From positions 168,861-232,860 of the forward strand of contig QPMI01000521.1 of the NCBI GenBank assembly GCA_004431415.1: a DNA stretch of 64,000 nucleotides, in the 5' to 3' direction. Source of the stretch: Cyanophora paradoxa CCMP329. Its lineage: Eukaryota > Plantae > Glaucophyta. The notes below the pieces were generated by a model, which worked only from the letters and a program-made list of their open reading frames with translations, ran no database searches and was not told where the DNA came from. A program made the position numbers and the translations under genes. This document shows, piece after piece, positions 29,994 through 64,000 of the stretch. How positions within the stretch are numbered: position 1 is the first letter of the stretch; each line of letters starts with the position of its first letter.

Positions 29994-30500
29994 AGTATTA
30001 CCCCATGGCTACATTGGCGAAAAAACCCGGAATACTACAAAAACATCGGGATTCCTTACGATATTCTGTAAGCAACCACTGAAATACATATTTCTAATCG
30101 AGAAATTCCCACTGAAATACACAATTCACTACAAAAACATCAAATCACCTTACGATATTCTGTAAGCAACCACTGAAATACATATTTCTCATCCATATCG
30201 CACACTGAAATACACAATTCACTACAAAAACATCAAATCACCTTACGATATTCTGTAAGCAACCACTGAAATACATATTTCTAATCGAGAAATTCCCACT
30301 GAAATACACAATTCACTCATCAAACCACCATGTAAGCAACCACTCCATATCGCACACTGAAATACACAATTCACTCATCAAACCACCTTACGATATTCCG
30401 ACACATTTCATACACATTTCATCCATATCGCCCACTGAAAACAATTCGCGCCTATCATTCCGACGATATTCAGTAACAAAAACAAATAATTCACGCCATG
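29994..30500. repeat. Terminal tandem-repeat block of element A (probable left TIR)
   Basis: A ~93-bp unit starting CCTTACGATATTCTGTAAGCAACCACTGAAATAC occurs at 30054, 30148 and 30241, with a partial copy at 30386. The sub-motif CACTGAAA recurs about 8 times. No inverted partner seen in the window. Confidence 0.8.
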
Positions 30501-30558
30501 GCTACATCTCCATGCAAAAAATGAAAGTGTTTAAAAACATTATCATATTGATCTACAA

Positions 30559-30882
30559 ATGACTACCGTAATACCAGAAGATGTAGAAGAGATTTTAGAG
30601 GATATGCCCGTAATTCCAGATAAGCAACAATTAAGCGAGTTGATTGAGAGAACCGCTAAGAGTTTTGGTTTAGATGTTAACAAACTACCAGCTAAATATA
30701 AAAAGAATCTCGCGAAAGGCTTCTTATCTAACATGGAAACTACCGATGAATCCAATTACTCAAAAATATTAGAGAGTAAACATGACGTAAACCATGCACG
30801 CAGTAAATTACAGTGGAAGCTATATATGAAAAAGCAGCGGGCAAAAAATGACGTCCTTTCTAGAAGTTTAAACAACCTGTAA
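30559..30882 (+). CDS. Small viral hypothetical protein (paralog of next ORF)
   Basis: 107-aa ORF ending HDVNHARSKLQWKLYMKKQR; AAAAAATGA motif ~35 bp upstream. Confidence 0.7.
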   Translation: MTTVIPEDVEEILEDMPVIPDKQQLSELIERTAKSFGLDVNKLPAKYKKNLAKGFLSNMETTDESNYSKILESKHDVNHARSKLQWKLYMKKQRAKNDVLSRSLNNL

Positions 30883-30884
30883 AC

Positions 30885-31178
30885 ATGACAACTTCCGTAA
30901 TATCCAATGAATTTATGGACGCCCTTAATCGTAATCCCGATATGTCGCAAGAAGAACGTAGCTTTATAATGCGTAAATATTTATCGCAGTCTGAATTTGG
31001 ATGTAATATGGAACAAATACCACGAAAGATAAGAAAACAAATTAAAAAGGTTGATGCTAATTATGTTCATCCTACATTAAAAGAAAGTTTCATACGTGGA
31101 CAAGCAACGCATGATGTTAACCTTATGAAATTTAGATTAAAGGAGAAGCTCGAAAAACGTAAACAAACTAAACCGTAA
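30885..31178 (+). CDS. Small viral hypothetical protein (paralog of previous ORF)
   Basis: 97-aa ORF ending HDVNLMKFRLKEKLEKRK. Confidence 0.7.
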   Translation: MTTSVISNEFMDALNRNPDMSQEERSFIMRKYLSQSEFGCNMEQIPRKIRKQIKKVDANYVHPTLKESFIRGQATHDVNLMKFRLKEKLEKRKQTKP

Positions 31179-31920
31179 TAGTCGTGGGTTCATTACTAAT
31201 TCTTATCGATTCTCTCTTTTTTATCGCTCGTTTCTTAACAAACTTGCGAAACGCTTTCATGTCATCATCTGTCAAAATTGCACGGTCTGTGTATACTTTG
31301 ATGTCATACCCTTGTAACCCAGTTATAACGGTCTGATAATTGTAGCCCCAAAGTCTATGTAGTTCTTTATAAGTCTTCTTATCGAGACCACCATTAAATT
31401 CATCAAAAGCGCAGTTAAATTCACGTTCATTCCCGAGGATGTTAAAGAATACTACGAATTCCACATTACGACGAATGGTAGTAGAAATAGAACATATACG
31501 TTGCACATTGAAAATCACGCTAATATTATAATGTCTTCCGCTCGTTACCAGTTTAGATAACACAGCTGAATTATGCATATCCAAATTAGAACCTATCATA
31601 TCATCCAGTATAATTACCAAACTATTACGCTTCTCATTGTTTTCTATTCGTTTCTTTTGCATACTAATTAGTTTTATCACCACATTATCATCCCATTCCT
31701 CATAGATATTATCAGGATGCGTTATATCTCTGAATTGACCCGTAAACGCAGTGGAACTAAACACTACAGTCTGATCGATCTTATCACGCAGTTCATAAAG
31801 TAGATATTTACAATATGTCGTTTTTCCAGAATTAGACCTACCAGCCAGCAAGAAACGCGACGGTAATTTAACTGTTTTAACCGGGTCGAATTCGGGAATA
31901 TCATTTAAATCTATATCCAT
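31168..31920 (-). CDS. A32-like (FtsK-HerA) DNA packaging ATPase, element A
   Basis: Walker A LLAGRSNSGKT, Walker B IILDD, family motif GRHYNIS and downstream Q...I...IRRN. Confidence 0.9.
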   Translation of the reverse strand: MDIDLNDIPEFDPVKTVKLPSRFLLAGRSNSGKTTYCKYLLYELRDKIDQTVVFSSTAFTGQFRDITHPDNIYEEWDDNVVIKLISMQKKRIENNEKRNSLVIILDDMIGSNLDMHNSAVLSKLVTSGRHYNISVIFNVQRICSISTTIRRNVEFVVFFNILGNEREFNCAFDEFNGGLDKKTYKELHRLWGYNYQTVITGLQGYDIKVYTDRAILTDDDMKAFRKFVKKRAIKKRESIRISNEPTTITV

Positions 31921-32969
31921 TACTCTCGTTACAGTAATAAGATAAAAAAGCCACACAACTACCTACTATTCTAGAAATTTGAGCATTTAAGCGTAGATAA
32001 ATTAAAGGCATTGATAACCAAAATATTATGTCTGAGAACATAAATATCGCAGACAACGGGACTTTCGTCGCTCGCACCAGAAACAGTAAGGTTTAGGTAA
32101 GCAGAAGAACTATTGTAGAAGTCCTGATATGATAGGACACTATTATGAAGTGATTCCTTACCGTTCTTGCTGAGAACCACACCATAAACACATGCATTTT
32201 CAAACCCGAAACCATCATTACCTACGGTGCATCCCTTGTAATGTGAAGGAATATGGTTAGCGGATGAGAAGAAGCCGGAAATGGGTTTATTGGTGATGTC
32301 AAGCGCACGGTTATTATGGAAAATTTGGAACTCATCGATTTTAATAGTAGATCCATAACCGGCGAAATCAGAATGAGTGTATTTATTCAGCTTGTTAACG
32401 TTACGAACAGTCATAAGGATAGAATGCACCAGACCAGAAACGTTAGCAAGCGAAACCTCGACCGGCTCGCCATCATCAGCGGTTTTCAGGGATCGAGTCT
32501 TTTTATGGATGATTTCCGTAATCGGAATACGAATACCTCCCTCATCATTCGCCATCTTTAACAGTCTCTCCGCCTCATCGGAAGGAATATTAACGAATTG
32601 ACAGATTAGCGCGCAATCAGTAATGCTAACAGATCCACCCGCCGGAACTTGCACTACGGTAGAATCCATAAAGTCGACCTCGATAGTGGGCATCTCCGAC
32701 AGGCAACAAAGTGGGAAAAATACCGAATCATCGAAGAATGGAATTTTAACTACATATTCAGTCGAGAGGTTTGTAGATTCACGGTTAGCCTCAGTATCAA
32801 GACCCAGTGACATATACATGTTATTCAGTGTGGCGTGGTCATTATCGATGAGTGTATGGACTTGCAGATAGTCCTGAGGAATCACCCACTTAAATGACCC
32901 ATGACAAAATCGAACCTCTTTAATGTAAGAAGCGCCACCGTTTGGAAGAATGCAAGGAACCCCACCAGC

Positions 32970-35419
32970 TTTTTTTTGTCGCGGTATTAATTCAGCTCAA
33001 GCATCCATCCTACTGCTATCAGAACAAGGATTTAGTCTAGCACATATACGTAACGAGCACTAGCTAGGCTAAGTGAAAGTTAAAGTATATGGGCTACGCT
33101 AAACCTAGTCTAAAAGGAGTGGTATATGCTGTTGCTAAAAGTTCCTCACTGGATGTTACTCCGCACCGCTGACGGGCAAAGTTCTAGGTTCCGAGGGCAC
33201 GAAGGCCGGGTTGTATTCTGCTGAGGCAGAACCCTCCCCTAGAAGTTTTTCTCCATACCTCCGCGCTCGATGGCATTGGTAGAGGGAGAAATCTGTCGCT
33301 CAGACTAACCTAGGGTTAGCTTTGCGAAGGTCCGCCCGTCCGCGGCGTAAGGTACACCAAGCTCGTCGCCCATGCCCTTTTGTTTTGAATACTGAAAGTA
33401 ATCAAATCGGGAACAAGCGAGTACTATGGGTTTCCGCCATATTGCGCCGGAGCGCGCCGACTGCTCTGTTGAGCGCCCTCAAGCTGATTATCTGGATGGG
33501 AACTCGGAAGAAGGCTAGGATATCTGAAAACCGCGTCACTTGCAATTGCAGGAAAAACGTCAAGAGGCCCTGAGGATAGCTTCTTATCTTATGCAGCTAG
33601 TCGTAACATGTACGTATACAGAGCCTGATCGTGAGGTACATCAAGAAAAGAACAAAGAGGCTATCTCGAAAGAGCTCATCGCCTCTTGCTCAGCAGCTAT
33701 CCTCTACATCTCCAGCTAATCCCACTCGTTGTCGTCGGTCACCCGCTGGACCGGGGTCCAGCCGCGCTCGACCTTGCGGCCGTCCATGCTGCTGCTGCTG
33801 GAGGCTCGCATTGACGGGCCTCCCCGCTCCTCCGCCCGCCCGGGGCGGCACGGGTTGCAACTGTGGACGATGTCTGCCAAGGCCGCGTCCGGGTGAGTCC
33901 GCTGGCACGTGAGGCAGACGGGCAGGTTCGTGAGGCTCGCCGGCGCCGCCTCGTGTCTTATCTTTCTTCGTGCTCTTGTCTTAGTTATTTTGCTTTTTTG
34001 TCTTTATGCCCCCTGGGCATGCGCAGCCCCCGCAGTGCTGGTGTCTAGAGACTGTGGCCGGTATTTCACCAAAAAATTTTGTTTTGAATACTGAAAGTAA
34101 TCAAATCGGGAACAAGCGAGTACTATGGGTTTCCGCCATATTGCGCCGGAGCGCGCCGACTGCTCTGTTGAGCGCCCTAGAGCTGAGTATCTGAATTGGA
34201 ATGAGGCTAGGATATCTGAAAACCGCGTCGCTTGCGATTGCAGGGAAAGCGTGGAGAGGATAGCTCTTCATACCGCAGCACGATGCCTGAGCGCGCTTCG
34301 TCGCCCGGCGCGTGTGCACGGGCGAACCTCTGTGTTCCGGTTGATCACGCTCCGGGCGCACTGGGCGTTCCAGTTCGCATCAATCTTGTGTTCACGTAAA
34401 GATCTCTAGATCTGCGCATACCCGCACTGTCAGAGTCCAGCTTGCGTCGCGCGGGGCCACGAGTACGCACTTTACTGTGAGGGCGAGAATAAGCCGTTCC
34501 GGCTCGTACGTGTGCGACAGCCGTGCTTGGTTGAAGTCATGCATGCCCAGGCGGTCGCGGACATACTTCTTCTTCTCCTGGACCGCTTGCGCCGCCTGAG
34601 CGTGGATCGGGGCAAGCGCCTCAAAGGCCTCCCAGCGCGTCAGAACTTGCTCGAAGGGCAGCGTGCACTCCTGATCGAAGCCGATAAGGAAGGCGAAGGT
34701 CGGCGCTACGCTGGCACGCGCGCAGCGGCGAACGGACCGCGCTGGGTGTCTCGATGGCTTTGCCTTCCGCCGCGTTCAGCAGGGACTGTGCTTCTTTGTT
34801 CACGAGCCCTTGAATCTCCTTGCGCAGCTCCCGCTCACGGTTCGCCCTCGTCCTGGTTGAAGACCGAGGGCATAGTCTCGTAGAGTTCGCGGATCTCCGA
34901 GGCTCGACTGCGGCGTTCCTTCGTGTTCGGGCGGGAACCCTGCCGCAAAGCCAATGAGATCCGAAAGCCAATGCATATGGGTCACCCGGAGCAGCAGGGG
35001 TCATGCCGGCGCCATTGGGAAACCATTATGCGGCCGGCGGAGCCGGGCACGCAGCCATATGTTGCCATCAAGACCGTGAGGCCTGCCACATGGTTTCCGA
35101 ATGCCCAGCACACCGGCTGGCGAGGTAACTGCCTCGTGGGTCTCGCACCCTGACGCGACACCTTCGAGCAGAGCGGGCGGCGCGCGTTATGGTTTACTAT
35201 CGTCTTTTTAGCATCTAGCTACGCCTTAAACCGGTCTAGTCCGGCGGCGGCCGGTGGTCCCTAACAAGGGCCGGCAGTACGTCCCGAAAAAAGCCGCCAG
35301 CTTCACTCACCGGTGTCATAAGGCTCCCCGGAGAGTTTTCCGGAGGTCGCTTATGCCCGGAAGCGCCTGGTTGGGCTGATCCAGACATCCTCGTCTTACC
35401 CTCCCGGGTACGGGAATCT
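32970..35419 (-). mobile_element. Non-autonomous poly(A) (non-LTR-type) retroposon inserted in MCP-A
   Basis: Exact 17-bp direct repeat CAAGGAACCCCACCAGC at 32953-32969 and 35420-35436. T8 at 32970-32977 is a minus-strand poly(A) tail. GC is higher than the flanks and no RT ORF is recognisable. Confidence 0.85.
33378..34250. repeat. Internal direct repeat within the retroposon
   Basis: 33378-33479 is identical to 34077-34178 (102 bp), with degenerate similarity for ~70-80 bp more. Confidence 0.9.
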
Positions 35420-35709
35420 CAAGGAACCCCACCAGCGGTAGTAACCTTAAAGTAAAGTGACATACCATTTAGTAGTTGTTTTCTAGGGATATCGAAGAAA
35501 CTCGTAGAACGAAAACCAAAGGTCGAGCCACGGGCTTTCACACTTTCCACATAGTTGCGAACCTTTGGCGATAGCCCAATTTGTAGACCGGGTGAAAGGT
35601 AAAGCGCCGAACTACCTTCCGTAACTAGGAGCTCCTTTAAAGTAGTGCCTGAAAGCGCCATGTTGTTTAAAATACGAAAAGAAATTTTTAATTCACATTA
35701 TTAAACAGA

Positions 35710-36612
35710 ATGACGCGTTACTATCTAAATATTGATTCCCGAGACCGGGACGAAGGAACCCCCACAAACTATTCTTATAAACTTCCCCATGCAATCCAAA
35801 ATGTTAAAGCGTGCCGGGTAACCAATTTTGAGATGTTTAATAACATCTATAATCTCAGTGAAAATGGAACACTTGCAACAGCTACTTATGACACAGGAGG
35901 TGCAATTAAAACAAAGAATAACGTTATTTTGAAAGGCACTTACACAGCGGATAGTTTAGTAAATCTTCTAAATGCTAAACTAAGCTCTCAGGTGTATAAT
36001 GCAGATGGAACGACTTATACACGTCACATTAATGTTACTTATGATCCAGTGACACTGTCTTTAAGGTTCATGTCGGATGTTACATTTAACCTGAAATTCA
36101 GTAGTCAGATTTTAGCGAATTTCCTCGGCTTTCCTACCACCTTTCCCGAGGGATCAAGTAACGGTTATGCTTCCTCTCCTCTCGATGCATCGGTAACAAT
36201 TGGTTCAATTATCTATACTCATTTCATCGACAGCGAAATACCATTAGACCTTCTGTTTAATTCTTACATCCTTCTACATGTGGATCCTTTCCGTGGTAAT
36301 TATGTAAGCAAGAACACCAGCGATGATAAAGCGATAGCTAAAATTGAAATTGATCAGACCGTAGGCAGTCTTCTAAGGTATGATTCTACTAATAATTCGA
36401 TGATCATCCATGAGCAAAACGGATTAGTGGAAGTTGACACGCTTAAAGTGCGTTTGACGTATTGGAATGGTGTAGAAACAGACATTACCACGGATTGGTC
36501 GATGACCTTAGAACTGATCACCGAAGATGAAAAGGATCATACAAAGGCATCAATAAAAAACATCATCCGAGATTTAGAGGGCGTTTATTTACCGTTTGGT
36601 CGGAATTATTAA
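35710..36612 (+). CDS. Minor capsid protein (penton), element A
   Basis: N-terminal YLNIDSRDR...NYSYKLP..IQNVK and C-terminal LKVRLTYWNG...DWSMTLEL, the usual PLV/NCLDV penton pattern. Divergent from MCP with a 48-bp gap. Confidence 0.8.
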   Translation: MTRYYLNIDSRDRDEGTPTNYSYKLPHAIQNVKACRVTNFEMFNNIYNLSENGTLATATYDTGGAIKTKNNVILKGTYTADSLVNLLNAKLSSQVYNADGTTYTRHINVTYDPVTLSLRFMSDVTFNLKFSSQILANFLGFPTTFPEGSSNGYASSPLDASVTIGSIIYTHFIDSEIPLDLLFNSYILLHVDPFRGNYVSKNTSDDKAIAKIEIDQTVGSLLRYDSTNNSMIIHEQNGLVEVDTLKVRLTYWNGVETDITTDWSMTLELITEDEKDHTKASIKNIIRDLEGVYLPFGRNY

Positions 36613-36673
36613 GCCAATTCTCCGATAAATGTGATGGGATATATTGCTAATTATTTTTGTTTTGGTATTACAA

Positions 36674-37438
36674 ATGGCTCGTAAGACACAACCTAAGGCG
36701 GCAAGCTCGCGCAGTTTCTTAACGAAACCCGTCGAAGAGGCAGAACCAGAACGGAAGCATTATAAGAAATCGAAAGGAACCGCAGGATATGGAACCGGTG
36801 ATATTGACAAAAGTATTAATAACATGATTAATTCCAGTGCTGTGGCGCCAGTAGATGACGTTAACGATTCAAACGCCCTTATTGAGCAAGTGCCGCTAAA
36901 CCGTATGCCCGGTGCAAAGCGTGGGATTAAGAAAGGACAGTTTAAGAGTTCCACGATTGAGAAAGTAGCGAAAAAATCGACTCTTCTTAAACTCCTCGAT
37001 GGCGGTGAGCGTTTGTATTCCACATACAGTGAGAAGGATCGCAGGAATCGATACTTTATTAGATCATCGAAGGGTAATCTAAGAACGGTAACATATAAAC
37101 ATGCTAAAAGTCTCATTGATGGAATCGCGGAAGAGGGAGAGAAAGAGAAGAAGATAACGGAGGAACCGATAACCAAAAAGAAGGTAGAGAAGAAAGCAAA
37201 TGTTACGTTTCATGTGCTACCCGATCCTATTAAAGAGAAGAAGACCACAACGAGCGAGCTTATCGCTAAAACGATTGATTACTTAGAATCCAATAAAACG
37301 GATTTACCCATTTTAAATAAGCATATCCTAAGGGTTGCTACATCGCAATCTGACCCGATTAACTCCATTCCCAATGGTGCGTCGATGCTATCAGGATTCG
37401 CTAAATTACGCATCCGTCCAGGTTACAGGAGGGCATAG
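36674..37438 (+). CDS. Lys-rich hypothetical protein (candidate virion core/DNA-binding protein)
   Basis: 254-aa basic low-complexity ORF next to capsid genes; positional analog of 47781-48515. Function is inference. Confidence 0.6.
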   Translation: MARKTQPKAASSRSFLTKPVEEAEPERKHYKKSKGTAGYGTGDIDKSINNMINSSAVAPVDDVNDSNALIEQVPLNRMPGAKRGIKKGQFKSSTIEKVAKKSTLLKLLDGGERLYSTYSEKDRRNRYFIRSSKGNLRTVTYKHAKSLIDGIAEEGEKEKKITEEPITKKKVEKKANVTFHVLPDPIKEKKTTTSELIAKTIDYLESNKTDLPILNKHILRVATSQSDPINSIPNGASMLSGFAKLRIRPGYRRA

Positions 37439-37780
37439 CTCACGCATCATTCTTACGTTAAAATTTTCTTTTCACAGAATAGCGTTTAACAATCCATTCC
37501 GAAAGTTTGCGCTCACGTTTACTTATTTTTATAAGTTGGCGTTGTAGGGAAAGTAGTGATATCCGTATCACTCTTTTTAATCACCTGTTCTACGGGGTTC
37601 ATTCGTAGAATCGAGAAAGGCGATGGCGCTTTCGGCTTATTTTTCCGGCGTTCTTCTAAATAATGATACGCAGCGCTCCGATGCAGCGGGGCAAAAATTG
37701 ACAGCATTTTAAAATGGTTATATATCAAAGAAGAAAAAGGACTTAAAGATTTCTCACTATATAGTAACAGTGATATAGCA

Positions 37781-38035
37781 ATGACGACCAGCGCAGCCCA
37801 GAAGCGTGCGAATGCGAATTACCGGGCGACCGGTAAAGGTAAAATTGCTCTCCAAAAGAATAAGGACAAAATGCGTAAGAAGGTTTTCGAATTGTATCAG
37901 TCCGATGAATGCTATCGGTCGTTAAAGATCGTTCAAGCAAGCCACCGGGCATATTCCAATAATGCGATTTGTTTCGTAAAGTTCTTATTCGGCGTTCCTT
38001 ACTCAAATCGGGGTCGCCCATCGAAGTATTTCTAA
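37781..38035 (+). CDS. Small basic protein with C-terminal GRP (AT-hook-like) motif
   Basis: 84 aa, ends NRGRPSKYF; resembles 48978-49205, which ends VGRPRKY. Confidence 0.55.
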   Translation: MTTSAAQKRANANYRATGKGKIALQKNKDKMRKKVFELYQSDECYRSLKIVQASHRAYSNNAICFVKFLFGVPYSNRGRPSKYF

Positions 38036-38254
38036 TTCTTTTTCTCGGCGCGCTTGCTCTGAGAAAGACAAAAAAAGCGCAAACGCGCAAAAATAAAGCT
38101 CTAGTTTCGTGTTATTTTTTGTCCCCCTTTTGTTATTTTTACATAGCCCTCAAATTCGCAATGCTCGATTTTGCGGTGGCTCAAAAAAATGATGTCAAGG
38201 TAAAAAAATGACTTAAAGATAATTTTTCTTTGGATATATAAACAGCGCAATAAG

Positions 38255-41200
38255 ATGCCTCGCCCTTCTAATCGGTTGATTCGAAAGCTTAATGAGGACA
38301 CTATCGGTTACACAACTATGAGTCTTGTGCATGGATTGATGACGACAGAGCAAGCTAACCTTATTCTTAACGCGATTAGTAGGAGAATTACGTTAAAAAC
38401 GGCAAAAGATTGGAAGGGAATTTATGAAAATAACCTTACAAAGCGTGAGGTGGGGGATGAGCTCCAAAGATTGGGCGCTATTGACGTTCCCCAAGAACTT
38501 ACGGAACAGCGACCAAAGCGAAACACCATGACGCACCTTAGCCAGTTTAATAAGCTAATGAATAATATAAAAGAAAAAATCGAAACTTTTGATGGTGACA
38601 CTGTGACCATGTATTTTCGTTTATATCGACAGATTGAAAAAGAAGTTCCCGAAAATGCTCGAATTGTTGAAGAATGGGGTGCCAGATACTACCAAGTCCT
38701 CAAAGATAGAAAGGATGGTTCATTTAATTCGGTAACTCTGAAAAAAGACTTATTCTTGCAATCCCTCGACTATGTTAAAAGACCATTTACAGGCGTTCCA
38801 AGCATTGAGAAAGTAGGAATTAAACCATTCATTGCATCTAACATAGAATCTATACATAAAAACCCGGGCTTACGCTATCTGAAAAATGTCCATAGGGATA
38901 CCTATAATGATGTTGTAACGATTGAGAAGATCAGATTAGACAATGATAATGACATTATTCCCAAGATTGATAGAATCCTCCGTGACTATCAAGCTCCCAT
39001 GATTCCATCTAAGTATCTCACTTACGAGTTTGGTGAGAACTCCAAAACATTTAATGATCTCTTTGACAAGACAAAAAACAAGGAATTACGAATTAAATCA
39101 TGTGTTCCTGATGCTTTCATTACAGTCTTTGCGCCAGCTTTTGAGAAAGCCAAGAAAGACTATAAACGTTATGTTAATGTTAAGTTTGATCATGCCTATT
39201 TATTTAAATTGGTGCATGGTCGCGATCCTGTTGAAGGGGATGATTTCGGATTATCATTAAGACAAATAACCAATGCATTTTTGAAGCCAAATAAGCTTTG
39301 CATGATAGTGGTAGACGAAAATGACAAAGTGGATTACGAACTATCATATATCCCTGTGGATGCAAACGGAAAGAGAGCAAGAAATAAGTTTCTCAGACCA
39401 TCCACCATCTATATTAAGGCTCAAAACGATCACATGTATTTACTTAACTACAATGTTGAGAGCCTTAAACAATCTTTCAATGGGTCGAAACCTATCGAAA
39501 AAGAAATTCCTTTGGGTTGCAGGTTCAGACTGAGAAGAAATGATAATACCAGTGGCAACTTTTTCGCAGCTAATGAGGATCACATAGTGACTGTTCTCCA
39601 ATCAGAGGAAGCCAAGGAAAAAAAACTTATTCGCATCAATTATGGCGGTGTTGGTGGTCTCACTAAGTTGTATACTTCTTTCCTGACAGTGCATAATTAC
39701 ATAGCTGATGCCAGAATTTCGGTTCTCGGATCCATCCAAAGCATAAGGTTCAAATACAAAGGCAAGGATGTAGTAATTATTCCTGTGTGTCCAGAAGTTG
39801 AAGTAGAGACAGCTTATCACTTGCAGTTTGAGAACTCAGAGCAGAGTAATGCATTCACCAAATATAATAACTTGTTATACGATTCATTAATTAACCGATC
39901 ATTGAAGAGTATCTTTAACGAAAATACGCGAAATGCTTTCATTATCGGTTCCCAGAGTGCGCTTAATGGTCGCTTTGAAGATTCCCCCGAAATCATCCAA
40001 GACTTAGCCACAGGATGTCTTAAAATGTATGAGCATGACGGATGTAAAGCTTATGCGGGTCATGTAAATTCGTTTGAGTATTTCCCAGTATTTAGCGAAT
40101 TTGATGACTTTAAGAATGTTACAATTAAGTCAGTGGCTGATGTGGAACCTTACAGCTTCTACTATGTAACTCTGAAAAAAGGAAAATACCTTATTAAGAA
40201 GGATTCGAAAGGTAAGGAGTGGGTGCAATACACAAACGATTCTAACAAAATACCACACATTCCAAAGATGAATTGTATTCTCATCGATTCTCCATGTAAT
40301 CTGATACCAGGATTTATGCTAACAGAATATTATGACGACCTGATAGACATAATCGATGTCAAATATATCCTAAAACCCTATCTGATTGTTAGAAATGTTG
40401 TTAAATATGTCATACAGCAAGTATTAGAGAGCAACCTTAGCGAAACTGAGAAAAAGCAAATTCTTGTAACCATTATTGGTATGCTCGGAAAACAAAAAAA
40501 TCAGAGATCAAGAACTAAACCATTTTTCTTAAAGTCTGATGCTATCGAATTTGCTAAAAAGCATGGTGGCGATGTGAAATTATTATGGTTGGGTGAGAAT
40601 AAGCCCAATAAAGAAACTTTTGAGGATTTCGAGGATCCTAATCGAATTGTTGCAAGTGGTGAGATTACAGACCCTCACATTTGGTATGTTGAAACGATCG
40701 AAGAAAGGCAACTTATAGACGGATTCCTCAATCCAAAATATGGTGTATTCAAAACAGCGAATGGAACTTTACAAGAAGTGCAGAGAATCAAAGGGCATAA
40801 TTATGGCTCTAAAAGTTGATGCTGTCTATGAGGCAGTGGATGCCAGCTTAGAGGTTGAAAATGTTTCGTTTGATCGCACTAAATATGAGAATATCGGAAG
40901 GTTCAGCACTAAGGCTATATCTTTCAAAGAGTATTGTAGTAAGATTTTACAGAAGAAGGATGAAGCAAAGAAGACGAATGGTATGATTCGATTCTTTAAG
41001 CCAGAAAGACTAAGGGATTTCGTGACTGTGAAAAAGAATGAAAGCACAACATACACAGTTCCTGATGAATACGACACGAAAGCAATATGTGACATGATTC
41101 TTTCGAAAGGAAAATGTATTAGAATAGAGGGTGATGTTCCAGGAACCGGAAAGTCCTATATTAGTAAGGCGATAGGTCGGGAATTTGAAAGTTCTTTATA

Positions 41201-44444: not shown

Positions 44445-44472
44445 TTTAATATATGTTTATAGATAAAAGAAG

Positions 44473-55300: not shown

Positions 55301-55646
55301 CCCTCTCTTTGATAGGAGCAATCGCTTGATTCCAGGTAAATATAAAAACGAGTTTCCCAATGCAAAGATTGTGGAGTATGTAGGTCTGAGATCGAAACTC
55401 TATGCTTTCAGAACTGAGACCTTTGATAAAATAAAGATGTCTGGGACTTCCTCCAAAGAGGTTCACTTTGATGATTTCAAGAGATGCTTGTTTGAAGGCA
55501 TCACCAAAACAGTAGCAGTAGTAAACAAGCGAAGACAAGACCACAACCTATATGATTTGGAGAGCAGAAGGGTGGCTCTAAACCAACTCGATAGCAAAAG
55601 GAAGATATTAGACGATGGAATTCACAGCATTCCATTTGGGCTCTAA
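52365..55646 (+). CDS. Polinton-type protein-primed family B DNA polymerase (pPolB) with degenerate exonuclease domain
   Basis: LDANNLYG, FKLMNNAIYGK, HDTDSF, GKYKNE, GLRSKLY and DSKR. N-terminal DCFKYAI...GHY, a C2H2-like CETCL..F...H, and an endonuclease-VII-like CYIC...VRDHCHQTG...AC..CN insert typical of Polinton pPolB. Confidence 0.95.
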   Translation: MPRQSNRIIKEKKNEILGLLGTLLVTGDITEFEYDRQAAILDRRPRLSQLTEITNRLYDRFEKMEEFRDEGLRLGTIEPEIEDGEAMNKAYSWLTYRARGEVIQDGIEFLERIAPTLPQRLRQKLQDLRAIKTRLTFICKFTKVSDPRVWITKFIYSDYFVITRSRNIDVELRNALQSMQEQMMQVDSYRLDRIEMLRVVIMSYAPVGGCFFSTPEWIGSKRATVNVKNIDGQDCFKYAILAYLHRNDINKHKSNEPSQYRRWLNELNFEGIQFPVACDAEVIDRFEEQNPELSINIYGADNQAQCFYPLHQSSNPRRKTKINLLLIENEEDDRGHYITIMSLSRLLKTTFDKAHDGRIYYCETCLSRFRTQEKLDVHIEANRCIDWRESKGKCPKSGSHIAFGLQHLRKTVWLPTICYVKMDSHSVPIDENRSKREVKSVSLTVVMGDEVISHYFEGSDPLGALFTTLTEIRPQVIRTLFTNIPMHPLTEEQKAQYKITKHCYICAERFTHENFPVRDHCHQTGAFIGKACRNCNLHRRISKQTKVAIVVDHMDECGHEIFRKIAQQDDKLRVEILSKNFDQYLSLQWGMWKFIDASHFMDFQAVDSGDLMSKFQTFRELAFTQYGLDPAHYVSAPGLSWDAMLIYTRAKIEQISDVGQYEFIERAIRGGFATMPTRYAKVENPDDHIVLLDANNLYGFALSQELPIGDFRWEDVTEALKETPGRSAFIEVDLEYPQTLTDHYDFPLVVNKEQITTEMLGEYQRKLLDITGEKLSKDPKLTATFSPKSNYVISQPLLIYLVSKGIIIKKVHRVLSFATSAFMKSYIDLNTKLRRQSMSRFESDFFKLMNNAIYGKCLESCRGRSVVKIANSEKLCKKYAASPLIKATNVLNENAVAFEMYSKHVHLDKPVAIGAFVLDFAKLHNSRFFYDVVRRTWETAELLFHDTDSFCLMLHTNDLNNEMKRISEHLDCSNYDPAHPLFDRSNRLIPGKYKNEFPNAKIVEYVGLRSKLYAFRTETFDKIKMSGTSSKEVHFDDFKRCLFEGITKTVAVVNKRRQDHNLYDLESRRVALNQLDSKRKILDDGIHSIPFGL

Positions 55647-55829
55647 TCTACTTCATTAATCTTTCTTTTTCTTTGGTTTCGCTCTCCAAGAAGTAATAAA
55701 CCGCGAATTAAATGCAGCAGCCAAATACATCTTAATCCAGGGTCATTGGGCTCGATTGCAAAATAGTTTGGAATTGTGTTCTCTTTCCACACAGACTCTT
55801 GCATTTATTATATGAGAGATAAGGTAAAG

Positions 55830-56879
55830 ATGCCTTCTACACAAATAGGATTGAGACAACCACCAAGAATTGTGAGAAAAGAGGCAATTGAAGATCGAGG
55901 GAATATCCTACCTATCACAGTTCCAGTGGAGGAGAAGAGCAGTCGAATATTAAAAAGATCAGAGATGGTCAAGCAATTAATCCCAGAGACCCTCCCAGCT
56001 GAGACAGCACCAAAAGAGTCGAAGATTGCTAAGAAGTTCTATGATCCCAGGACAGGCTACAAGGGATTTACTGCAATGAGACAGGAACTACCAGAAGAGA
56101 ACTACAAGAAGATGAGAGAATGGTATGATAAACAGGAGGTTGTCCAAATTAATGCACCCACTCTATCTCGAAAGAGAGATCCCATGATTCCAATTAGGCA
56201 ACCCCTTGATACATATGTGATTGATCTGCTCTTCTTTCCTGCATACAAAAAGCAGAATGATGGTTATGATACATTTATGAGTGCAATGGAATCAACCCTA
56301 AGAACTGGGTTCATAATTCCAATGAGAGACAAGAGTGCTCTAACTACACTTGCAGCATTCAAGCAACTTGAACAGAGAGTCCCCAGACCGATTGTTCGCA
56401 TTCAGAGTGACAGTGGAAGCGAATTTACCAATGTGTTGTTCACAGATTATTTGGGAACGAAATTCATTGAGCATCAACTAAGTGATGTTGCAGATCACAG
56501 AACCCAAGGTCGGATTGAAGCCTTTAACAGACAGATCAAGAGATTAATCACAAATTACTGCATTGCAAATAATACTGCACGATTTTTTGATGTGTTGGGT
56601 GATATTGAGTATAATTATAATAATACCATTCACTCTGCAACCAAGAGGAAACCAGCAGAGACCACAGAAGCCCACTACAAAGAGATTGTGAATATGGAGG
56701 ATCAGAGATTCAAGAAATCAATTGAGTATCTTGATGCTCTGAAACCTGGTATGTTTGTGAGAGTGAAAGTTGAAAAGAATCCATTTGCAAAGCAGGGTGT
56801 TAATTGGTCTCGAATTGTTTATAGTGTGGAGGCAGAGAGGGCTTCAAGTTCAGAATCAGAAGTCCAAGTGGTGAGATAG
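55830..56879 (+). CDS. Retroviral-like (rve) DDE integrase; C-terminus continues through frameshifts to ~57200
   Basis: YVIDLLFF (D), IQSDSGSEF (D), GRIEAFNRQIK (E), YNNTIHSATKRKP and SH3-like VRV...F.K...NWS. Confidence 0.92.
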   Translation: MPSTQIGLRQPPRIVRKEAIEDRGNILPITVPVEEKSSRILKRSEMVKQLIPETLPAETAPKESKIAKKFYDPRTGYKGFTAMRQELPEENYKKMREWYDKQEVVQINAPTLSRKRDPMIPIRQPLDTYVIDLLFFPAYKKQNDGYDTFMSAMESTLRTGFIIPMRDKSALTTLAAFKQLEQRVPRPIVRIQSDSGSEFTNVLFTDYLGTKFIEHQLSDVADHRTQGRIEAFNRQIKRLITNYCIANNTARFFDVLGDIEYNYNNTIHSATKRKPAETTEAHYKEIVNMEDQRFKKSIEYLDALKPGMFVRVKVEKNPFAKQGVNWSRIVYSVEAERASSSESEVQVVR

Positions 56880-57272
56880 TTGATGGTAGATTCGCTTTCA
56901 TGAACTGCTGCCCATTAAAGGTGTTGAGTATCATGAAACTCCCACAGTGGATGCCCTTGAACAGGCAAAAGAAGAAGCCAGGTTGATTCAGCAATCAGAA
57001 AGGAGGGCATAGAAAAAGCAAGTGAAGTACCAAAAGAGCCCCTCACAGAAGCAAGAGCACAAAAGAAGGGTAGAGTAGAGAAAGAATTAAAGAAGTTGAC
57101 CATAGCAGGAACCCAGAAATTATCAGAAGTCAACAGTCAGAGGTGGTATAATGACTTTTCAACCACCAAGGAAACATATACTGCACCCCAAACTCGATTT
57201 AATTTACGAAGTGGTCAAAGGAAATAGATCAGCAGCGCTTCCTAAATCTCTTAGACCTCTGACGAATTTTCC

Positions 57273-57470
57273 TCATTTGTCTATCTTTTTCAATAATTTC
57301 CAAGAAGAAAGTTTCAAGTTTGAGACCAGTTGGTAATTATAAACAAAGAACAGTCTCACATGCTCTGGCTGTGACATGAAGAAATTGAAGTAGAAAGCAG
57401 TCTTGAAATCATGGATCCAGTCTGACTGGGCAGCATGGATGATTGCAGGGTCTTGGTAGATGGGATCCAT
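57273..57470 (-). CDS. Small hypothetical protein
   Basis: 65 aa MDPIYQDP..., preceded by AAAAAATTGACAAGGAT, nearly identical to the motif upstream of the primase gene. Confidence 0.45.
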   Translation of the reverse strand: MDPIYQDPAIIHAAQSDWIHDFKTAFYFNFFMSQPEHVRLFFVYNYQLVSNLKLSSWKLLKKIDK

Positions 57471-57691
57471 AGCAGAAGTTGAGGGAATCCAGAAAATCCT
57501 TGTCAATTTTTTATTTTGTAAGTGATTGATCTCGACGAAACCTGATTGGCGCTATCGTGACGATTCCGAATCTGTTTTCAGATTTAAAAACGGAGCACTT
57601 GGTAATAAAATACAGTAGCTACTGTAAAAATCGCCATAATGTGGGCGAAGATACAGAAGCCACTGTATCATACATCAGGACTTCTGAAATA

Positions 57692-59220
57692 TTATACACT
57701 TCGAATAAATGCACCTGTCACATCAACTCTCATAGTTGGGGTGTTGATGTATACAAGTGGATAAATTCGAATATACCTTGTCCTCAGAGGGTAGCCAATA
57801 TAGAAAACGTCTTTAATAGAGGTGGGATACCCAGAACTGTATGAGACATCACCACTGTTGTGGGCATTATTGATAGTTTCACACATGAACACTCTATTGA
57901 CACCTTCATACTTGATAAATGACCAAGAAATCCCATCTTGTGATGTTGCAACATTGAAGTCTTAATAAAAGCGTTTGTTACACCAGAACCATATGCTATA
58001 ATAGATGCAACCTCAAATATGTATGGAAGGTTACTTGGAGATACTCAGTGGGACACTCCATATCCCATCAGGAGCAGATGCATTTGCTTCCAACCTGTCA
58101 AGGAAGGTCTTGATTTAAATGCCTCCTTCCAATTTTGATGATGAAGCAGTGAATGCACCATCTGATAGAAGATACCAGTTAGCATCAATTGGAGGTATGC
58201 TATTCAGAGTGGATGATATATAGAACCTTGCAGGGTTCTTGATTTCGTAATTTGCAACCAGTAAATCACAGAGTCTATCAATCATCACAGTGTTTGCTGC
58301 TATGTACATTTCGGTTGCATCTATCATATCTGGGATCTTAGAGGTATCATCCAGAGAGTTTACTATGGTCTTTGGAAGTGGGACAGAGAGTCTATAATAT
58401 CTTGCATATCCTTGATCATCATTGTATGGGAGAAACTCTTGCATCTTTTCCAGAGCAGAGAGTTCACTTGCAGCCATCAACATATTGATTAATGGACTTC
58501 CAGAGGTGGAAGCAATCCATGAGAGAATACCCAGCTGTTCACATCTTCATAAGAGTAACCCACATTTGGAGCATCTGTTTCATTGACTTCACCACAGGAT
58601 ATACTTATCACTATAATATCATCATCATCATCATAGATCTTCTTAGCATGACTGTAACCACAGACACTGGGATTGTTGTTACCTGAGATTGCACCATCAA
58701 TTAGAGACATCCATCATAGTTCACAGGTGAGAAATATGCTGGAGCAGCAGAGGTGGATCTTGCAGCAATCTTGCTGGGGATGGATTTGTAGGAGTTATCA
58801 TTGGTGATAAAAATGGGCTTCATACTCACAGTGTCAAAACTTGTGATCACTACATCTTGAGAGAGTCTTGAATGAGAGACTCACCAGTAACAGTGAGAAT
58901 GGCTGTCTCCAATGGGTCACATCATACTTGGTGTTGAAGAGTGCATTATCAATAATATTTCGGGGATTTGCAAAGATTAAAGGCAGTTGATTGAGATAAG
59001 TGGAATGCAAATCGGTTGCTGTGAGTTTAGGTTCGTTTGGAAATTCGGGATTTTCACATTGAGACCAATCGCAATTATCCCACCAGTGGATGTTCCACTC
59101 ACCAGATCAACAAGGTCAATTACTCTTTTTCCTGTTCGAGTTTCGATTTCTTTAAGCAATCTCGTAATAATTATACCACGAGCTCCCCACCTGAAAGACT
59201 GAGAATTACACGAAGGGCAT
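57692..59220 (-). CDS. Patatin-like phospholipase with C-terminal F5/8 type C (discoidin)-like domain; several frameshifts
   Basis: ILSLSGG(G)ARG, VSGTSTGG (GxSxG), AARSTSAAPAYF, LIDGA...NNP and YYRL...LDD, then ATSQDGISWSFI and RTRYIRIYP...MRVDV. Confidence 0.8.
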
Positions 59221-59269
59221 CTTTACTTAACTCAAATTTAATAAATCTCTATAAGTAGAGTAAACAGGG

Positions 59270-61313
59270 ATGAGTTTCAATTACCCAGCAAACCTACAAA
59301 CCATTCCTCATCAGGAAGAGGGAGGGCAGATAACAAACATGTAAATTTCGATAACTTGACAGCCAGGGGTCAATCTCAATTGATCACAGTGCAGATGAAA
59401 CCTCAAAGACTCAACCAAGAGAGCATGCACTTTCAATAAACGAAATGGATCCCGAAAAGGAGGATGTGAGTGTTGCTTTCAGCATGGGAAATGTGAAATC
59501 GAATCAGGTAGCCCAGAGTAAAGCAACCAGGAGCAGACCAAGAAAACTGAAAACCAGTGGAACCCACCCAGATATTCCAACTCGATTCGATAGTGGTAGG
59601 TTAATATTCAATGTTCAAAATGAGAAGGGTGGGCATCAGAGTGGTTTGAGAATCTTTAATGAAGGATCAAATGCAATTGCACAAATTCCCGAAATATTAC
59701 AGATAGCCCCCCATGGAGAAACCAACAAAATCGAGTTCACTAACAATGTTTATCCACGAGATATTGTGGCGAATTCGGCTTCTAATGCGCAATTCGGTTT
59801 CCAACTACCTGGTGATACAGCAAAGAATAAGGCGTCTATCACTGTCAACAGTAGCCCCACTCAACCAGTAACAATTCATTTACACCCAGACCTTGTTGAA
59901 ATGGATAGGCACCTTTTACCTTTGGTGACAAACACCAAAGATCTTGGTATTAGAACCAGACAATGGCGAAATATCCATGGAAGCAATGTCTATGCAAATG
60001 GAGAGAAACTTGTTAGTGAGAAGACCATCAGAGAGATCTTTGAATATTATGGACCTGTCCAGTTCCCTTCCACTACCATGGGATCCACCAGATTTAACAC
60101 CGAAAAAGCAACCAGGCAGAGAGTACACAGCAGATGAGACAGTTCCTTTTGGGCAACACATTGTGAGTTGGGAGCAGTTCGAAATAAACCGATAATTGAA
60201 CCAAGAAAGCAAATTGATGAGCAATATTTACCTCCGAAATCGATATTTTGAGCTTGACGAATACCAATTCGTTCCAGACGAGAGGAATACCTACCTGATG
60301 GTTTCGACCCACAAGAGTATGAATATGATCAATATGATCCCAATGAGGAAGAGTATTTACCAGATGGTTTAGATCCACAAGAGTATGAATATGAGCAGAA
60401 TTATGAACCCCATGAGGAATACTTAGCAGATGGTCACGAACCACCAGTTGTGGATTATGAGCAACCATATGAACCCCATGAAGAATTATTACCAGATGGA
60501 TTCGCCCAGAGATTTGGAATTCTTCCTGATTGGGAGCAGATCAACAATAAACCAGCCAGATATCCACCAGAGGATCACAACCATGACTGGGATGAGATCT
60601 TAGGTAAACCAGCGAAATTCCCACCAGAGGATCACAGGCATGATTGGGGTGACATTGATGGAATACCAACTGAGTTTCCACCAAGCAAACATGAACACAC
60701 CTGGGATGAGATCAATGACCACCAGAATTCGCAAAAGTAGAGCCTCTTGCTACTCTGGGAGTTTCTCTTTACCAGACTTGCAATGTCCCTGAAAGGATCT
60801 TTTTGAATCACCACTATGTTCATGTGGAAGGGACACTTGCAAATTCAGCTATGATAGGACCATTGCATATTAGAACATTACCAGGCTCTTATAATCCACC
60901 ACCAGAACCAGGAGCAACCATACCAAATATCTTGTGTCAGCTACATGAGGTTGACATACCCACAGATACTTTTAGAGTTCCAACAGACCAGCAACCTACC
61001 AGAATTACAACTCAGCCATACAGGTTCATGTAACAGATGTGAGCAGTTTAGATGGATCAAGACCAATGATAGTATTCAGTCGAGATAAATATTCCTACAT
61101 TCCATAGTGGGAACTGCAAATGATAATTATGGAAGGGCAGAACTTGCATGGATAAAAACAGATTATGGTGGGGTTCTCGAGCCAATCAAAGAATGGCTGC
61201 AAAAAACATTCACAACGAAAATATATCGAGAGTGGTAACAGAAGATTATTTAGAAGATCAAGGATATATTGACGAAGGAGAACTAACGAATATCTTTCTT
61301 TATTCGTGATTAA
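59270..61313 (+). CDS. Fibre-like structural protein 1 (frameshifted)
   Basis: DLGIRTRQWRNIH, acidic YDPNEEEYLPDG repeats and PPEDHNHDWDEILGKP-type HxH repeats as in phage tail fibres. Boundary with the next gene uncertain. Confidence 0.6.
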
Positions 61314-61315
61314 AA

Positions 61316-64000
61316 ATGATACAACCTTACAGTCACAAGTAACATTACACCAGTAACATTTCAGCAAGTAACATTTGGACAAGTAACCTATGGGCAAGTA
61401 ATATATGGACAAGTAATATTTACGGAAGTAATTTAGAGGTTGACTACTTGACTGTGAATATTGAAGCAAACCTACCAAATCATCCTACTTCTAATGTTGT
61501 TTTGGATTGGATTGATAACCACACACACACAAAGATGAGATCACAGATTTTGCACATGATCATTTATGGGAGCATATAACAAATCCCCCTCAACCTTCCC
61601 GCCCAGTTCACACACTCATGACTACTCAGAGATCACAACTCTATCACAGACACATTTGGAGTGAAATAGATGAACAGCCAGTATTCGCACAATTGAATGC
61701 AATCGGAAACGTTTTTAATGGAGTCACACTTTACCAATCGATTAATACACCTGAAAGGCTATTTTTGAATGATCATTATGTTAGTCTCAATGGGACTTTT
61801 ACAGGTCAAACAGGCACTCCAATGAGGGAACTCTTGCAGTAAGATTACCCAGGGATCCAATTGTAAATGGAGTTTATGATGGCGATTTCAATGTAGAGTA
61901 AATGATACTTTCCCAGTATCTATGTAACGAATTATCACCCAGGTGAAACAGGACAAGTAGAGAATTTCTCGGCAGCAATACAAGTAAATGTAACAGATCA
62001 AAGTGCATATGATGGAGCAAGACCTAAAATAGTTTTCACAAGGGAGAAAGTTGTTAACTATCTTCCCGTTGCAGGACAACCACAGATGATCACGGTAAAT
62101 GTGAGATGGCGTGGATAAAAACGACATCAGGTGGCGCTTAGAGTCAATCAAAGAATGGCGGCAAAAAACTTACACAATACCACCCTTTCGGGTGTGGTTA
62201 CAGATGATTACCTTACCAATAAAGGATATCTTACGACCGCGGATTTAAGCAGTTATGCAACCGATGCAGAATTAGCGGCGGCACTTGCGAATTATCTACC
62301 TCTCACAGGTGGAACTGTTAACAGGAACTGTGAATGCTACCACTTTACAAATTGGTGGAACCACAATACCAAAATGTTACGTTTTGACCAATTAGATGTG
62401 GTTTCGACAGATAGAAGCGCAAATAATTGGAATTTAGGGTGGACACCAAGAACAGGTCAAGCAGGATGTTACACAACACCACAAAATGATGAAGATTGCA
62501 GTGCTTGTTGGATGAGGTGGAATGTCCCCACAGGAATGAAAACGTTTTATATTCAAACCATGTGTTGGTCTAATTGTAGATATTTTGACATCTATGGTCA
62601 AACAGCCAATGGTAATCAACATTTCCTTCGGCGTTTAAATTGTTTATCAAGGTATTCAAGCATCAGTACATGATGGAACACAATCCAGTATACTTTTCAT
62701 CTCTATAAATTGTGAGTTTTACACAAAAATATATGTTCAAGGTCGAAAAGGTAGAATCCATCTTACAGGTGTTTTTGGGTGGAGTAGACAGAGGGCAACA
62801 GATAATGAGATTGGGATGATCTCTTGGGATAATATATTTAGTAAACCATCATTGTACTCAGCCGCAGACCTTCCAGCAACAGCAAAATGGACAACTAACA
62901 CATGGTTAAAATCAACAGACAATATAGAAAGATTTTGGTTTGGTAATAATGATTGTACATATATACGAGGGAGAACAAATGGAGATAATGCGTGTGTTGT
63001 ATTCAGAAACTCAGCAGATGCTACAATTTTACAATCATATGAAAACGGCAACCTTGCGATTACTAATACTGTGTCAGCTCCAACCATAAGTGGAACGATT
63101 ATTAATGGGGGTTCAATTAATGCGACTACAAATTATAAATTTGGCGACAAAACAATGCCCCGATGTGTAGAATATGACGCAATTGTTGCAGGAAATTCGC
63201 CACATGGTTATGCAGGAGGTTGGGGTTTTGAAGGTGGAACAGCATGGGAACCCTACTATAATTACGGTGGGTATGCTTCCAATAATGAGAGTGGCGACAC
63301 TGTTGTTAACGGCTCATGGATTGATTACACAATACCCACTGATTTATATACGGGAACAGCCCACTTAACATATCTCCCTTGGGTAAATTGTCGTTACTTT
63401 GAGATTTGGGGAATCAATAGACAAGGTAATGCGGTTTTCATTGCAAGAGTGAATAGTTATCATCAATATGAAGCGCACCAGATGGAAACCACAATGGTTT
63501 ACAAAATGTCCCTATTATGTTGGGAAATCGCTTTACTCGCCTTCGTATTATTCCAAAGGTAGGAAGAGTTCACATTATGGGCATTGGATTTACTCGCACT
63601 TGGACAGGAAGTAGTTATGGTGGTCACACAGGTTATGTTTCTTGGGATAACATTTATAGTAAACCAAATCTACTAACTCCAAGTTTAGTGGGAAACATTA
63701 TAGGTTTTGATACTTGGAGTGGAACAGGTAGTGGTGGTCTATCATTCAGTGGTTCTTGGGAACAGGTTGGACAGCTTCTGTTTCTAATCCTGTGGATGGA
63801 TTTTATAGTATTGTTGAAGGTGATTCAACAAGTGGAGATTGGGCGCAAATTGAAGTCCCCGCAAATATGCAAACATGTCACGTTCAATATTTGTGTTGGA
63901 CGAATTGTAGATATTTTGATATTGGAGGTTATCGATCGGGTAGATGGTTCCACATTATGCGTGTAAATACTTACCAGGCTATCTCAAATTATGCATCCGC
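61316..64000 (+). CDS. Fibre-like structural protein 2 with three tandem distal domains (frameshifted; runs off the right edge)
   Basis: HTH/HxH repeats, a segment paralogous to fibre 1, LANYLPLTGGTV, then three W.NCRYF(D/E)I.G domains (~62566, 63380, 63897) separated by SWDNI.SKP linkers. Confidence 0.6.

Follow-up and report, generated by a model that had tools for sequence, protein, structure and literature searches.

A predicted Polinton-type virus whose palindromic end interrupts the replicase gene of another endogenous virus in Cyanophora paradoxa

Introduction

Virus-in-virus nesting has already been described in other protists. [quoted passage not shown] Here we describe a stack of this kind in the glaucophyte Cyanophora paradoxa. 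In a 64,000-nt stretch of contig QPMI01000521.1 (hereafter the window), host DNA is followed by a virus, A (29994-41835), whose replicase gene runs into the end of a second virus, B (41836 to beyond 64000). The pair resembles the Halocafeteria elements in its nesting, in its terminal palindrome and in the combination of pPolB with D5, but belongs to another host lineage and another capsid family. Moreover, B's palindrome measures 97 nt, as against 52 nt in Halocafeteria, and the element that bears it has both pPolB and D5; no protease gene was found in the window, and B's copy number is several times higher. Taken alone, the locus is ordinary.

Two further studies bear on it directly. The polisuviruses of Barth, Ha and Aylward have two replicase classes, module-bracketing repeats and a stacking that is proposed as a route to module swapping, and one example carries the same assembly prefix as our contig (bioRxiv 10.64898/2026.10.13.758929). 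Their stacks are tandem, whereas here B's end cuts a gene of A and the repeats bracket capsid genes plus an AEP-SF3 gene rather than a replicase alone. Bellas 2023 (PMC10120064) counted capsid genes of the same families in Cyanophora: P0003, an exemplar, is 62% identical to the major capsid protein (MCP) of B, and two more exemplars are A-type. The main text of that paper does not contain the word 'nested', and the hairpin on gene_58741 (see below) is unremarked in the table rows covered. Our literature search found the general phenomenon but, for these two Cyanophora families, no description of nesting; the supplements of the two 2026 preprints lay outside it and may include the locus.

Such stacks matter as proposed raw material for module exchange among PLVs, and they show how endogenous viruses die. 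Whether they arise by chance, by a general safe harbour in viral DNA or by virus-specific targeting is a question that the published surveys raise and do not settle.

Results and discussion

The end of B lies within the helicase gene of A

A's helicase carries motifs I-IV, and its frame enters B's hairpin at codon 366 (ATRRLT|KHILKN, position 41836). A pattern search gave no match to motifs V or VI in six frames across 29900-64000. The first-pass annotation had stated that A's helicase sequence ends exactly at B's hairpin without these two motifs, and this description holds. The hairpin is a 97-nt terminal palindrome (41836-41932) with a perfect 29-bp outer stem and a fold z of -12.15 (reached by 0 of 200 shuffles). 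Short-read depth steps up at its first base, in run X1 from about 57 to about 11,700.

At this junction we recovered a 2,142-nt contig (39724-41865) from each of the three DNA runs (X1, X8 and X11). It matches the window with 0 differences and 0 gaps, at depths of 51, 93 and 26, which correspond to single copy. The contig stops 30 nt into B; if a repeat starts at 41836, this is the point at which a graph of 31-mers has to split. Similarly, the host/A junction (29993/29994) is bridged in X1 and X8 by single-copy contigs with 0 differences and 39 bases on A's side. A false join of two repeats would also place B's end beside A, and B is indeed a high-copy repeat; in the best runs 72-75% of the sampled words of 35500-45400 were found, and B's frameshifts could be long-read errors. 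We nevertheless consider such an artefact scarcely credible. Misassembly at 41835/41836 is unlikely because single-copy contigs from independent runs cross host/A and run through A/B unchanged.

A different objection is that the nest is not a clean one, either because A was truncated at B's end (by adjacent deletion, tandem integration or recombination) or because B is itself composite, made up of one unit with the capsid genes and AEP-SF3 and of a transpoviron-like pPolB-rve unit. The right-hand part of A is absent from the window, and Barth et al. report tandem integration and replicase modules bracketed by repeats, along with EVE_QPMI01_83, a locus of three elements that has the same assembly prefix (bioRxiv 10.64898/2026.10.13.758929). 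Against truncation, the break coincides exactly with the terminus of B and falls in the middle of a run of codons, in a gene that shows no other decay there. With its composite variant, which is taken up with B's gene content, we judge this explanation quite improbable. A clean nest predicts that A's remainder lies beyond B's right end.

The same end is fused to an A-type capsid gene elsewhere

A second copy of the junction type came from a published gene model. The 413-aa Cyanophora capsid model gene_58741 (row 23 of Table S2 in Bellas 2023, PMC10120064) begins with 30 residues that are identical, 30 of 30, to the minus-strand translation of 41835-41924, that is, to B's hairpin read outward. 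From about codon 27 the model is an A-type MCP, visibly different in sequence from A's MCP at this locus. Because the same end is fused to this A-type capsid gene too, we take B's hairpin to be a true, conserved terminus. By the same comparison, there appear to be at least two loci where a B-type end interrupts an A-type virus, the second of them known as a predicted protein. Together with the short-read junction contigs, this supports the earlier claim as far as the joining of B's end into A's replication gene is concerned.

Chance, tolerance or targeting

The account that we favour, with somewhat better than even confidence, is that the palindromic end of the high-copy B was joined into the helicase gene of the lower-copy A, most likely by B's rve integrase, in a setting where insertions into resident viral DNA are tolerated or mildly favoured. 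The first event would have been the entry of A into the host channel gene. As judged from the poly(A) and the 17-bp duplication in A's MCP gene, it is likely that a polyadenylated RNA was copied into that gene in trans, by an enzyme of a host retroelement, and B would have inserted in A's replicase, most likely via its own integrase. The retroposed insert, the B insertion and a frameshift in the replicase would amount to three hits on A, with no order implied. Under this account nests would accumulate since viral DNA that is resident, silent and AT-rich can absorb insertions, or draws them to a mild degree, and not from any need of B for A.

How many nests would uniform insertion produce? From summed contig depth in ten bins (41840-48499), whose medians are 134, 158 and 100 times single copy, B has roughly 100-160 copies; this is a rough figure, as it pools contigs of at least 85% identity, reaches only to 48499, and summed depth is no true copy number. 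Table S4 of Bellas 2023 gives 366 Cyanophora MCPs in clusters of 272 and 94, with about 7.3% of the genome viral (PMC10120064). If B has 100-272 copies and the cluster of 94 is A, 7-20 B copies are expected in viral DNA under uniform insertion, and 1.4-5 in A-type elements. The nest at this locus needs no special cause, since 1.4-5 B-in-A nests are expected by chance.

Pure chance would mean that B inserts uniformly and that, among hundreds of viral elements, some land in each other. With plausible copy numbers, uniform insertion would give two or more B-in-A nests with a probability of 0.41-0.97, and rve integration of the Mavirus type proceeds without sequence specificity (PMC8547959). Yet one of the two A-type MCP exemplars listed by Bellas bears a B end, for which the chance is 0.2-0.8% under uniform insertion and up to 2.6% if repeats alone tolerate insertion (the repeat fraction in Cyanophora is 29.4%; PMC6704402); this probability is post hoc and concerns one case, both known flanks having been found through A-type genes. 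A also received two insertions within 12 kb. On balance we regard chance as an unlikely sole explanation. In Halocafeteria the preprint counts 14 elements inside viral elements, 77 complete ones and 6.2% viral DNA (bioRxiv 10.64898/2026.07.28.741278), from which we compute about a threefold excess of nesting over the viral-DNA share. These comparisons are hinting at some enrichment of B insertions in viral DNA.

A stronger reading makes B a specific hyperparasite, its integrase steered to A-type genomes by sequence, bound protein or extrachromosomal co-replication, so that B disables their genes and may travel with them. Both B ends with a known flank, at this locus and in gene_58741, do lie in core genes of A-type viruses, and there is a precedent in Cafeteria, where 91% of type 1 Ngaro retrotransposons sit in virophages (PMC8547959). 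However, these are two cases among some 100-270 B-type copies, both reached via A-type genes and hence a biased sample; the two sites are in different genes with no evident common sequence; B is equipped with a capsid, two replicases and an integrase of its own, with nothing obvious needed from A; and chance alone predicts 1.4-5 such nests. Specific hyperparasitism is accordingly improbable in our estimation, and the broader proposal that B hunts A-type PLVs, endogenous viruses of its own size class, integrating preferentially there and disabling their capsid or replicase genes, is doubtful. If it were true, targeting of A-type viruses by B would be a direct route to swapping of capsid and replicase modules. 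The first-pass annotation had suggested that resident viral DNA is a preferred target or safe harbour, or that B parasitises A-type viruses. The harbour is plausible, and in print for Halocafeteria; parasitism is not borne out by two cases where 1.4-5 are expected.

Several points weigh against the account of integration into tolerant viral DNA. The B side of the junction contig is 30 letters, one below the 31 needed for bridging, and all of this comes from short reads. The right half of A, the right end of B and the target duplication flanking B would all lie past 64000, where the window ends. The enrichment is based on two loci, of which one came up by accident and is known as a predicted protein, and the assignment of clusters to viruses (94 to A, 272 to B) is our inference. 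Finally, the depth profile ends at 48499, and the pPolB-rve half is tied to B by composition and by the lack of a second terminus. The 97-nt hairpin of B precisely marks a family of at least 100 insertions in a genome that is about 7% viral, and its flanks could separate chance, harbour and targeting cheaply.

B is a high-copy virus of Polinton type

By its predicted genes, B (41836 to beyond 64000, more than 22 kb) is a high-copy Polinton-type virus: it encodes a pPolB, an rve integrase, a double jelly-roll MCP and an A32 ATPase. The pPolB (52365-55646, plus strand) has 304 relatives, the best of them 43% identical over the full length and carrying PF03175, and its motifs DANNLYG, KLMNNAIYGK and DTDS are intact. 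The integrase gene (55812-56879, plus strand) matches PF00665 below the cut-off (E 0.0012), IS481 and IS3 transposase profiles with E 7.5e-14 and 1e-5, and PHROG transposases with E 1.3e-11; three acidic DDE motifs are present. Upstream lies an AEP primase-polymerase fused to a D5/SF3 helicase (49399-51762, plus strand), with Prim-Pol, D5_N and DUF5906 matches and TIGR01613 above its cut-off.

In the capsid module, the MCP gene (45538-46907, plus strand) is in two frames that are 57% and 63% identical to P0003 (62% overall). The high-depth copies of B carry an indel at the frame break (about 46.28 kb), which is either decay or a long-read error. B's MCP fold was judged on P0003, a 62% identical paralogue (Cyanophora paradoxa, EukProt), whose model is a double jelly roll with a predicted local distance difference test (pLDDT) score of 69 and matches Vp54 of Paramecium bursaria chlorella virus 1 (PBCV-1) with E 4.7e-20. 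The MCPs of A and B are 21% identical and belong to one double jelly-roll family. The A32-type packaging ATPase follows (46970-47752, plus strand; PF04665, E 2.5e-11). Two divergent penton-like genes (43512-44444, minus; 44473-45483, plus) were aligned with a gene of A; their products have no match in Pfam, PHROGs or PDB and are named by mutual similarity and context.

With Polintons/Mavericks (Polintoviricetes) B shares a pPolB of Polinton/adintovirus type, the rve integrase, the A32 ATPase, the double jelly-roll MCP and putative penton genes. It differs from them in its extra AEP-SF3 replicase, in having a hairpin end where Polintons have ends of the form AG...CT, and in the lack of an adenovirus-type protease motif in the window, and its MCP is unrelated in sequence to the known solved capsids of the Polinton group. 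For the protease, neither Pfam nor a motif pattern of the adenovirus-type cysteine protease, which most members have, gave a match within the window, B's right part extending beyond it. Polintons also have terminal inverted repeats and target duplications of 5-6 bp, whose right-hand counterparts in B would lie past the window's end. A virophage (Virophaviricetes) was considered and rejected: the capsid model ranks PBCV-1 and other capsids of the nucleocytoplasmic large DNA virus (NCLDV) type far above those of Sputnik and other virophages, and no protease motif was seen.

B also carries candidate replication sequences. Its terminal palindrome is followed by short repeats and then by iterons. 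Two palindromic clusters of 9-bp repeats of the type TGTGACGCC lie at 42624-43059 (fold z -9.9) and account for 16 of the 24 matches to this motif in the window, where 0.33 would be expected by chance. A third such palindrome (51832-51973) is inverted with respect to 42624-42775, at 89% identity over 153 nt. These iteron clusters are likely to be origin-like, serving the primase-helicase. All three have AT-rich centres, and the outer two, being inverted, bracket the capsid genes and the AEP-SF3 gene; they could allow inversion or excision of this 9-kb block. The iteron pattern also occurred in 5 IMG/VR contigs, which we dismissed as chance: the matches are coding repeats of phages, with no likeness to the window's proteins.

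The bracketing bears on the composite variant raised above, as the inverted 153-nt repeats (at 42.6 and 51.9 kb) enclose exactly the capsid genes plus D5. Speaking against it, one composition and CpG depletion run throughout B, pPolB and D5 are known together in a single element of Halocafeteria (bioRxiv 10.64898/2026.07.28.741278), and the iteron palindromes lie some 800 nt inside the hairpin end, as for internal origins. In trinucleotide signature the parts of B correlate with each other at r 0.77-0.95 and with A's capsid region at -0.30 to 0.07. The observed/expected ratio of CpG is 0.25-0.71 in B and 1.06-1.75 in A's capsid region. Since B is CpG-depleted and Cyanophora methylates CpG in repeats (PMC12344493), B is likely to be the longer-resident family of the two. 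The copy at this locus may itself be decaying.

The rest of B (57000-64000) consists of fragmented open reading frames (ORFs) and short tandem repeats, with an ORF coverage of 0.44 and possibly fibre-like genes. Coding tandem repeats stand at 60282-60683 and 61335-61432, with periods of 66, 57 and 15-30 bp and an acidic, proline-rich translation. No Pfam match was found in 57000-64000 and no inverted copy of B's left end within the window. Searches further afield added little: a homologue search with the N-terminal half of B's MCP returned nothing, viral contigs scanned with A's helicase, B's MCP and the pPolB alignment gave no related loci, and neither did metagenome contigs scanned with the MCP alignment and with B's terminal stem.

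A is a Polinton-like virus damaged in capsid and replication genes

From its gene content we assign A (29994-41835) to the PLVs. It carries an MCP, an A32 ATPase and a minor capsid protein (the last by similarity to B's), as do PLVs with a Tlr1-like pDNAP-SF1 replicase. Its left end (29994-30500) is likely to be a terminal inverted repeat; it starts with AGT, the first base being uncertain by a few nt, and is delimited by a GC step, by the contigs bridging the junction and by 93-bp tandem repeats (30034-30317). Next come two small paralogous ORFs (30559-31178, plus strand; mutual BLASTP E 1e-5, no Pfam match) and the A32-type packaging ATPase (31168-31920, minus strand; PF04665, Pox_A32, E 6.2e-16).

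The double jelly-roll MCP gene is in two parts on the minus strand, a 3' part (31971-32969; homologues at E 1e-13 to 3e-12, 24% identity to P0003) and a 5' part (35420-35661) whose frame is continuous with it across a target-site duplication. Joined there, the halves form a single 407-codon frame with 0 internal stops, and A thus seems to have been barely decayed when the intervening insert arrived. Single-sequence folding of this MCP reached a pLDDT of only 28.5. Head-to-head with it stands a likely penton, or minor capsid protein (35710-36612, plus strand), 23% identical to B's 43512-44444 product (E 2.7e-13); it has no match in Pfam, PHROGs or PDB, and its name rests on that similarity and on gene context. 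The window had been described as holding two complete, diverged capsid modules (MCP, penton, ATPase) within 20 kb. Two modules there are, with A32 ATPases 16.6 kb apart and the diverged MCPs noted above, but 'complete' was an overstatement, as the MCP of B is broken into two frames and both viruses' pentons owe their name to mutual similarity and context.

A's replicase gene (38255-41835, plus strand) is interrupted after motif IV. Its C-terminal part is solidly predicted as an SF1B (Tlr1-like) helicase, by matches to AAA_19, AAA_30 and Viral_helicase1, by motif positions and by the ESM Atlas, which gave a lead to PIF1/AAA_30 clusters. Upstream of the helicase lies a polymerase-like domain with pDNAP-like motifs A, B and an altered C at the expected spacing. 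The Atlas lead for this domain, to DNA_pol_B_2 clusters, scores 0.93, with Pfam on 20% of the cluster members, and searching with a profile of the B-type pPolBs gave no match to it. The whole is likely to be an inactivated pDNAP domain fused to an SF1B helicase, the pDNAP part being a lead. Tlr1-like PLVs (Krupovic et al. 2016, PMC5499653) have in common with A the MCP, the penton-like gene, the A32 ATPase and a large replicase of pDNAP-like and SF1B parts; in A the pDNAP assignment is by motif likeness and the Atlas lead. The integrase (a tyrosine recombinase or rve) and right terminal repeat expected of such a virus would lie in A's right part, outside the window. A homologue search with A's helicase (among longer proteins) found nothing, and PDB sequence searches with A's helicase, B's pPolB and the penton alignment gave nothing useful.

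The replicase also has a frameshift near 40750, on which short reads of three runs agree and which the first-pass annotation did not mention. With its MCP split and its replicase both frameshifted and interrupted by B, A is predicted to be dead for capsid formation and replication alike.

Some further properties of A are of interest. The first 78 residues of its replicase (from 38255) resemble those of B's pPolB (from 52365) at 29% identity (E 0.002), while the remainder is unalignable; the shared segment is possibly a terminal-protein or localisation segment. In X1 the replicase has a depth of 54-142, close to single copy, against values 5-40 times higher in the bins on A's capsid side, and in composition the replicase falls between the capsid region of A and B. 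A itself may be a mosaic of capsid and replicase modules. In run X20, which we guess to be RNA, diverged A-family contigs reach depths of about 4,900, 1,500 and 800 over the bins of A's ATPase and penton (31168-31834, 35170-36503), and depth over B's coding bins and the host bins is near 0-3. This is a weak hint that another A-type element, and not B, is transcribed or amplified in that sample.

A probable retroposed sequence splits A's capsid gene

The MCP halves are separated by a GC-rich insert of 2,450 bp (32970-35419, minus strand; GC 0.57). It is flanked by 17-bp direct repeats (32953-32969 and 35420-35436), has a poly(A) tail, which on the plus strand shows as poly(T) beginning at 32970, and carries no recognisable enzyme gene. 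A poly(A) with a duplication of the 7-20 bp class is the signature of target-primed retroposition. An empty-site joint (32936-35429), from a related insert-free copy, was present in X8 and X11, two of the four runs. We scanned 10 of the 35 insert frames of at least 50 aa, including the longest (157 aa), and found no Pfam match and no reverse transcriptase; the insert has no Rfam match either. An autonomous non-LTR retrotransposon was therefore set aside, as no reverse transcriptase or endonuclease gene occurs in the frames scanned. The insert is likely to be a non-autonomous retroposed sequence and not a retrotransposon proper. The earlier statement that a retroposon split A's MCP accordingly stands for the split itself, with its duplication and poly(T), and needs qualifying in that the insert encodes no recognisable enzyme.

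Comparable insertions are known from endogenous virophages and PLVs: Ngaro elements in endogenous mavirus-like elements (EMALEs) of Cafeteria (PMC8547959), reverse-transcriptase elements in cryptophyte PLVs (PMC12220804), and in Cymbomonas Gypsy and PLV inserts (PMC10675990); a PLV inside a giant-virus element is among these cases. Like A's insert, the retro-inserts of these three studies are GC-rich and interrupt AT-rich viral genes. A's insert is unlike them in being non-autonomous (no reverse transcriptase found), in its low-copy core and in the poly(A) and long duplication of target-primed retroposition.

The core of the insert is near single copy, at about 1-1.4x. It contains an internal 190-bp duplication (33378-33567 and 34077-34259, 89%) and, at about 34017, a short repeat whose copy number is very high (bin depth ~28,000 in X1). 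Short joints connect it to host DNA near 29.3 kb.

The host channel gene and its surroundings

Positions 1-29993 of the window are host DNA with a GC content of 0.69 and short introns. GC drops from 0.69 to 0.37 at 29994, and the DNA is AT-rich (0.37-0.41) from there to the window's end, except for one GC-rich block. Adjoining A are the 3' exons of a potassium-channel-like gene (28578-29993, minus strand), identified from sequence and translation with a weak Ion_trans_2 match (E 0.04). Its pore motif, TV-GYGD, is interrupted by an intron, and its 5' part would be on the far side of the viral DNA.

Whether A entered an intron, as was first thought, is doubtful. A hydrophobic helix, LLVLCICIIPLLSW, shares its reading frame with the pore exon and extends to A's edge. 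The 68 bases from that edge to the nearest CAG encode in this frame a strongly hydrophobic helix (13-residue hydropathy 3.0), in the place expected for the channel's outer helix, and 0 of 87 acceptor-like control sites gave a comparable hydrophobic frame. A Pfam scan of the 53-residue helix stretch beside A left it unrecognised. A lies within a channel exon, or else it is in an intron whose TAG acceptor follows some 10 bases on; what remains of the earlier description is that a channel-like gene adjoins A. In exon or intron alike, an insert of more than 34 kb is likely to disable the gene, because candidate host introns at the locus measure only 56-165 nt.

An Rfam scan of 29000-64000 gave no match. 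At the window's start, 1-8000 has intermediate GC (0.59) and strand skew and is possibly a decayed repeat; none of its 11 ORFs of at least 100 aa has a Pfam match. Two more host genes can be discerned. That at 21100-24450 (minus strand) has RING-like, coiled-coil and WD40 parts and, labelled by eye, is one that we take to resemble COP1. The other, at 14700-19500 (plus strand), has a carrier-like part followed by EF-hand motifs and, on the same footing, presumably resembles a mitochondrial carrier with EF-hands.

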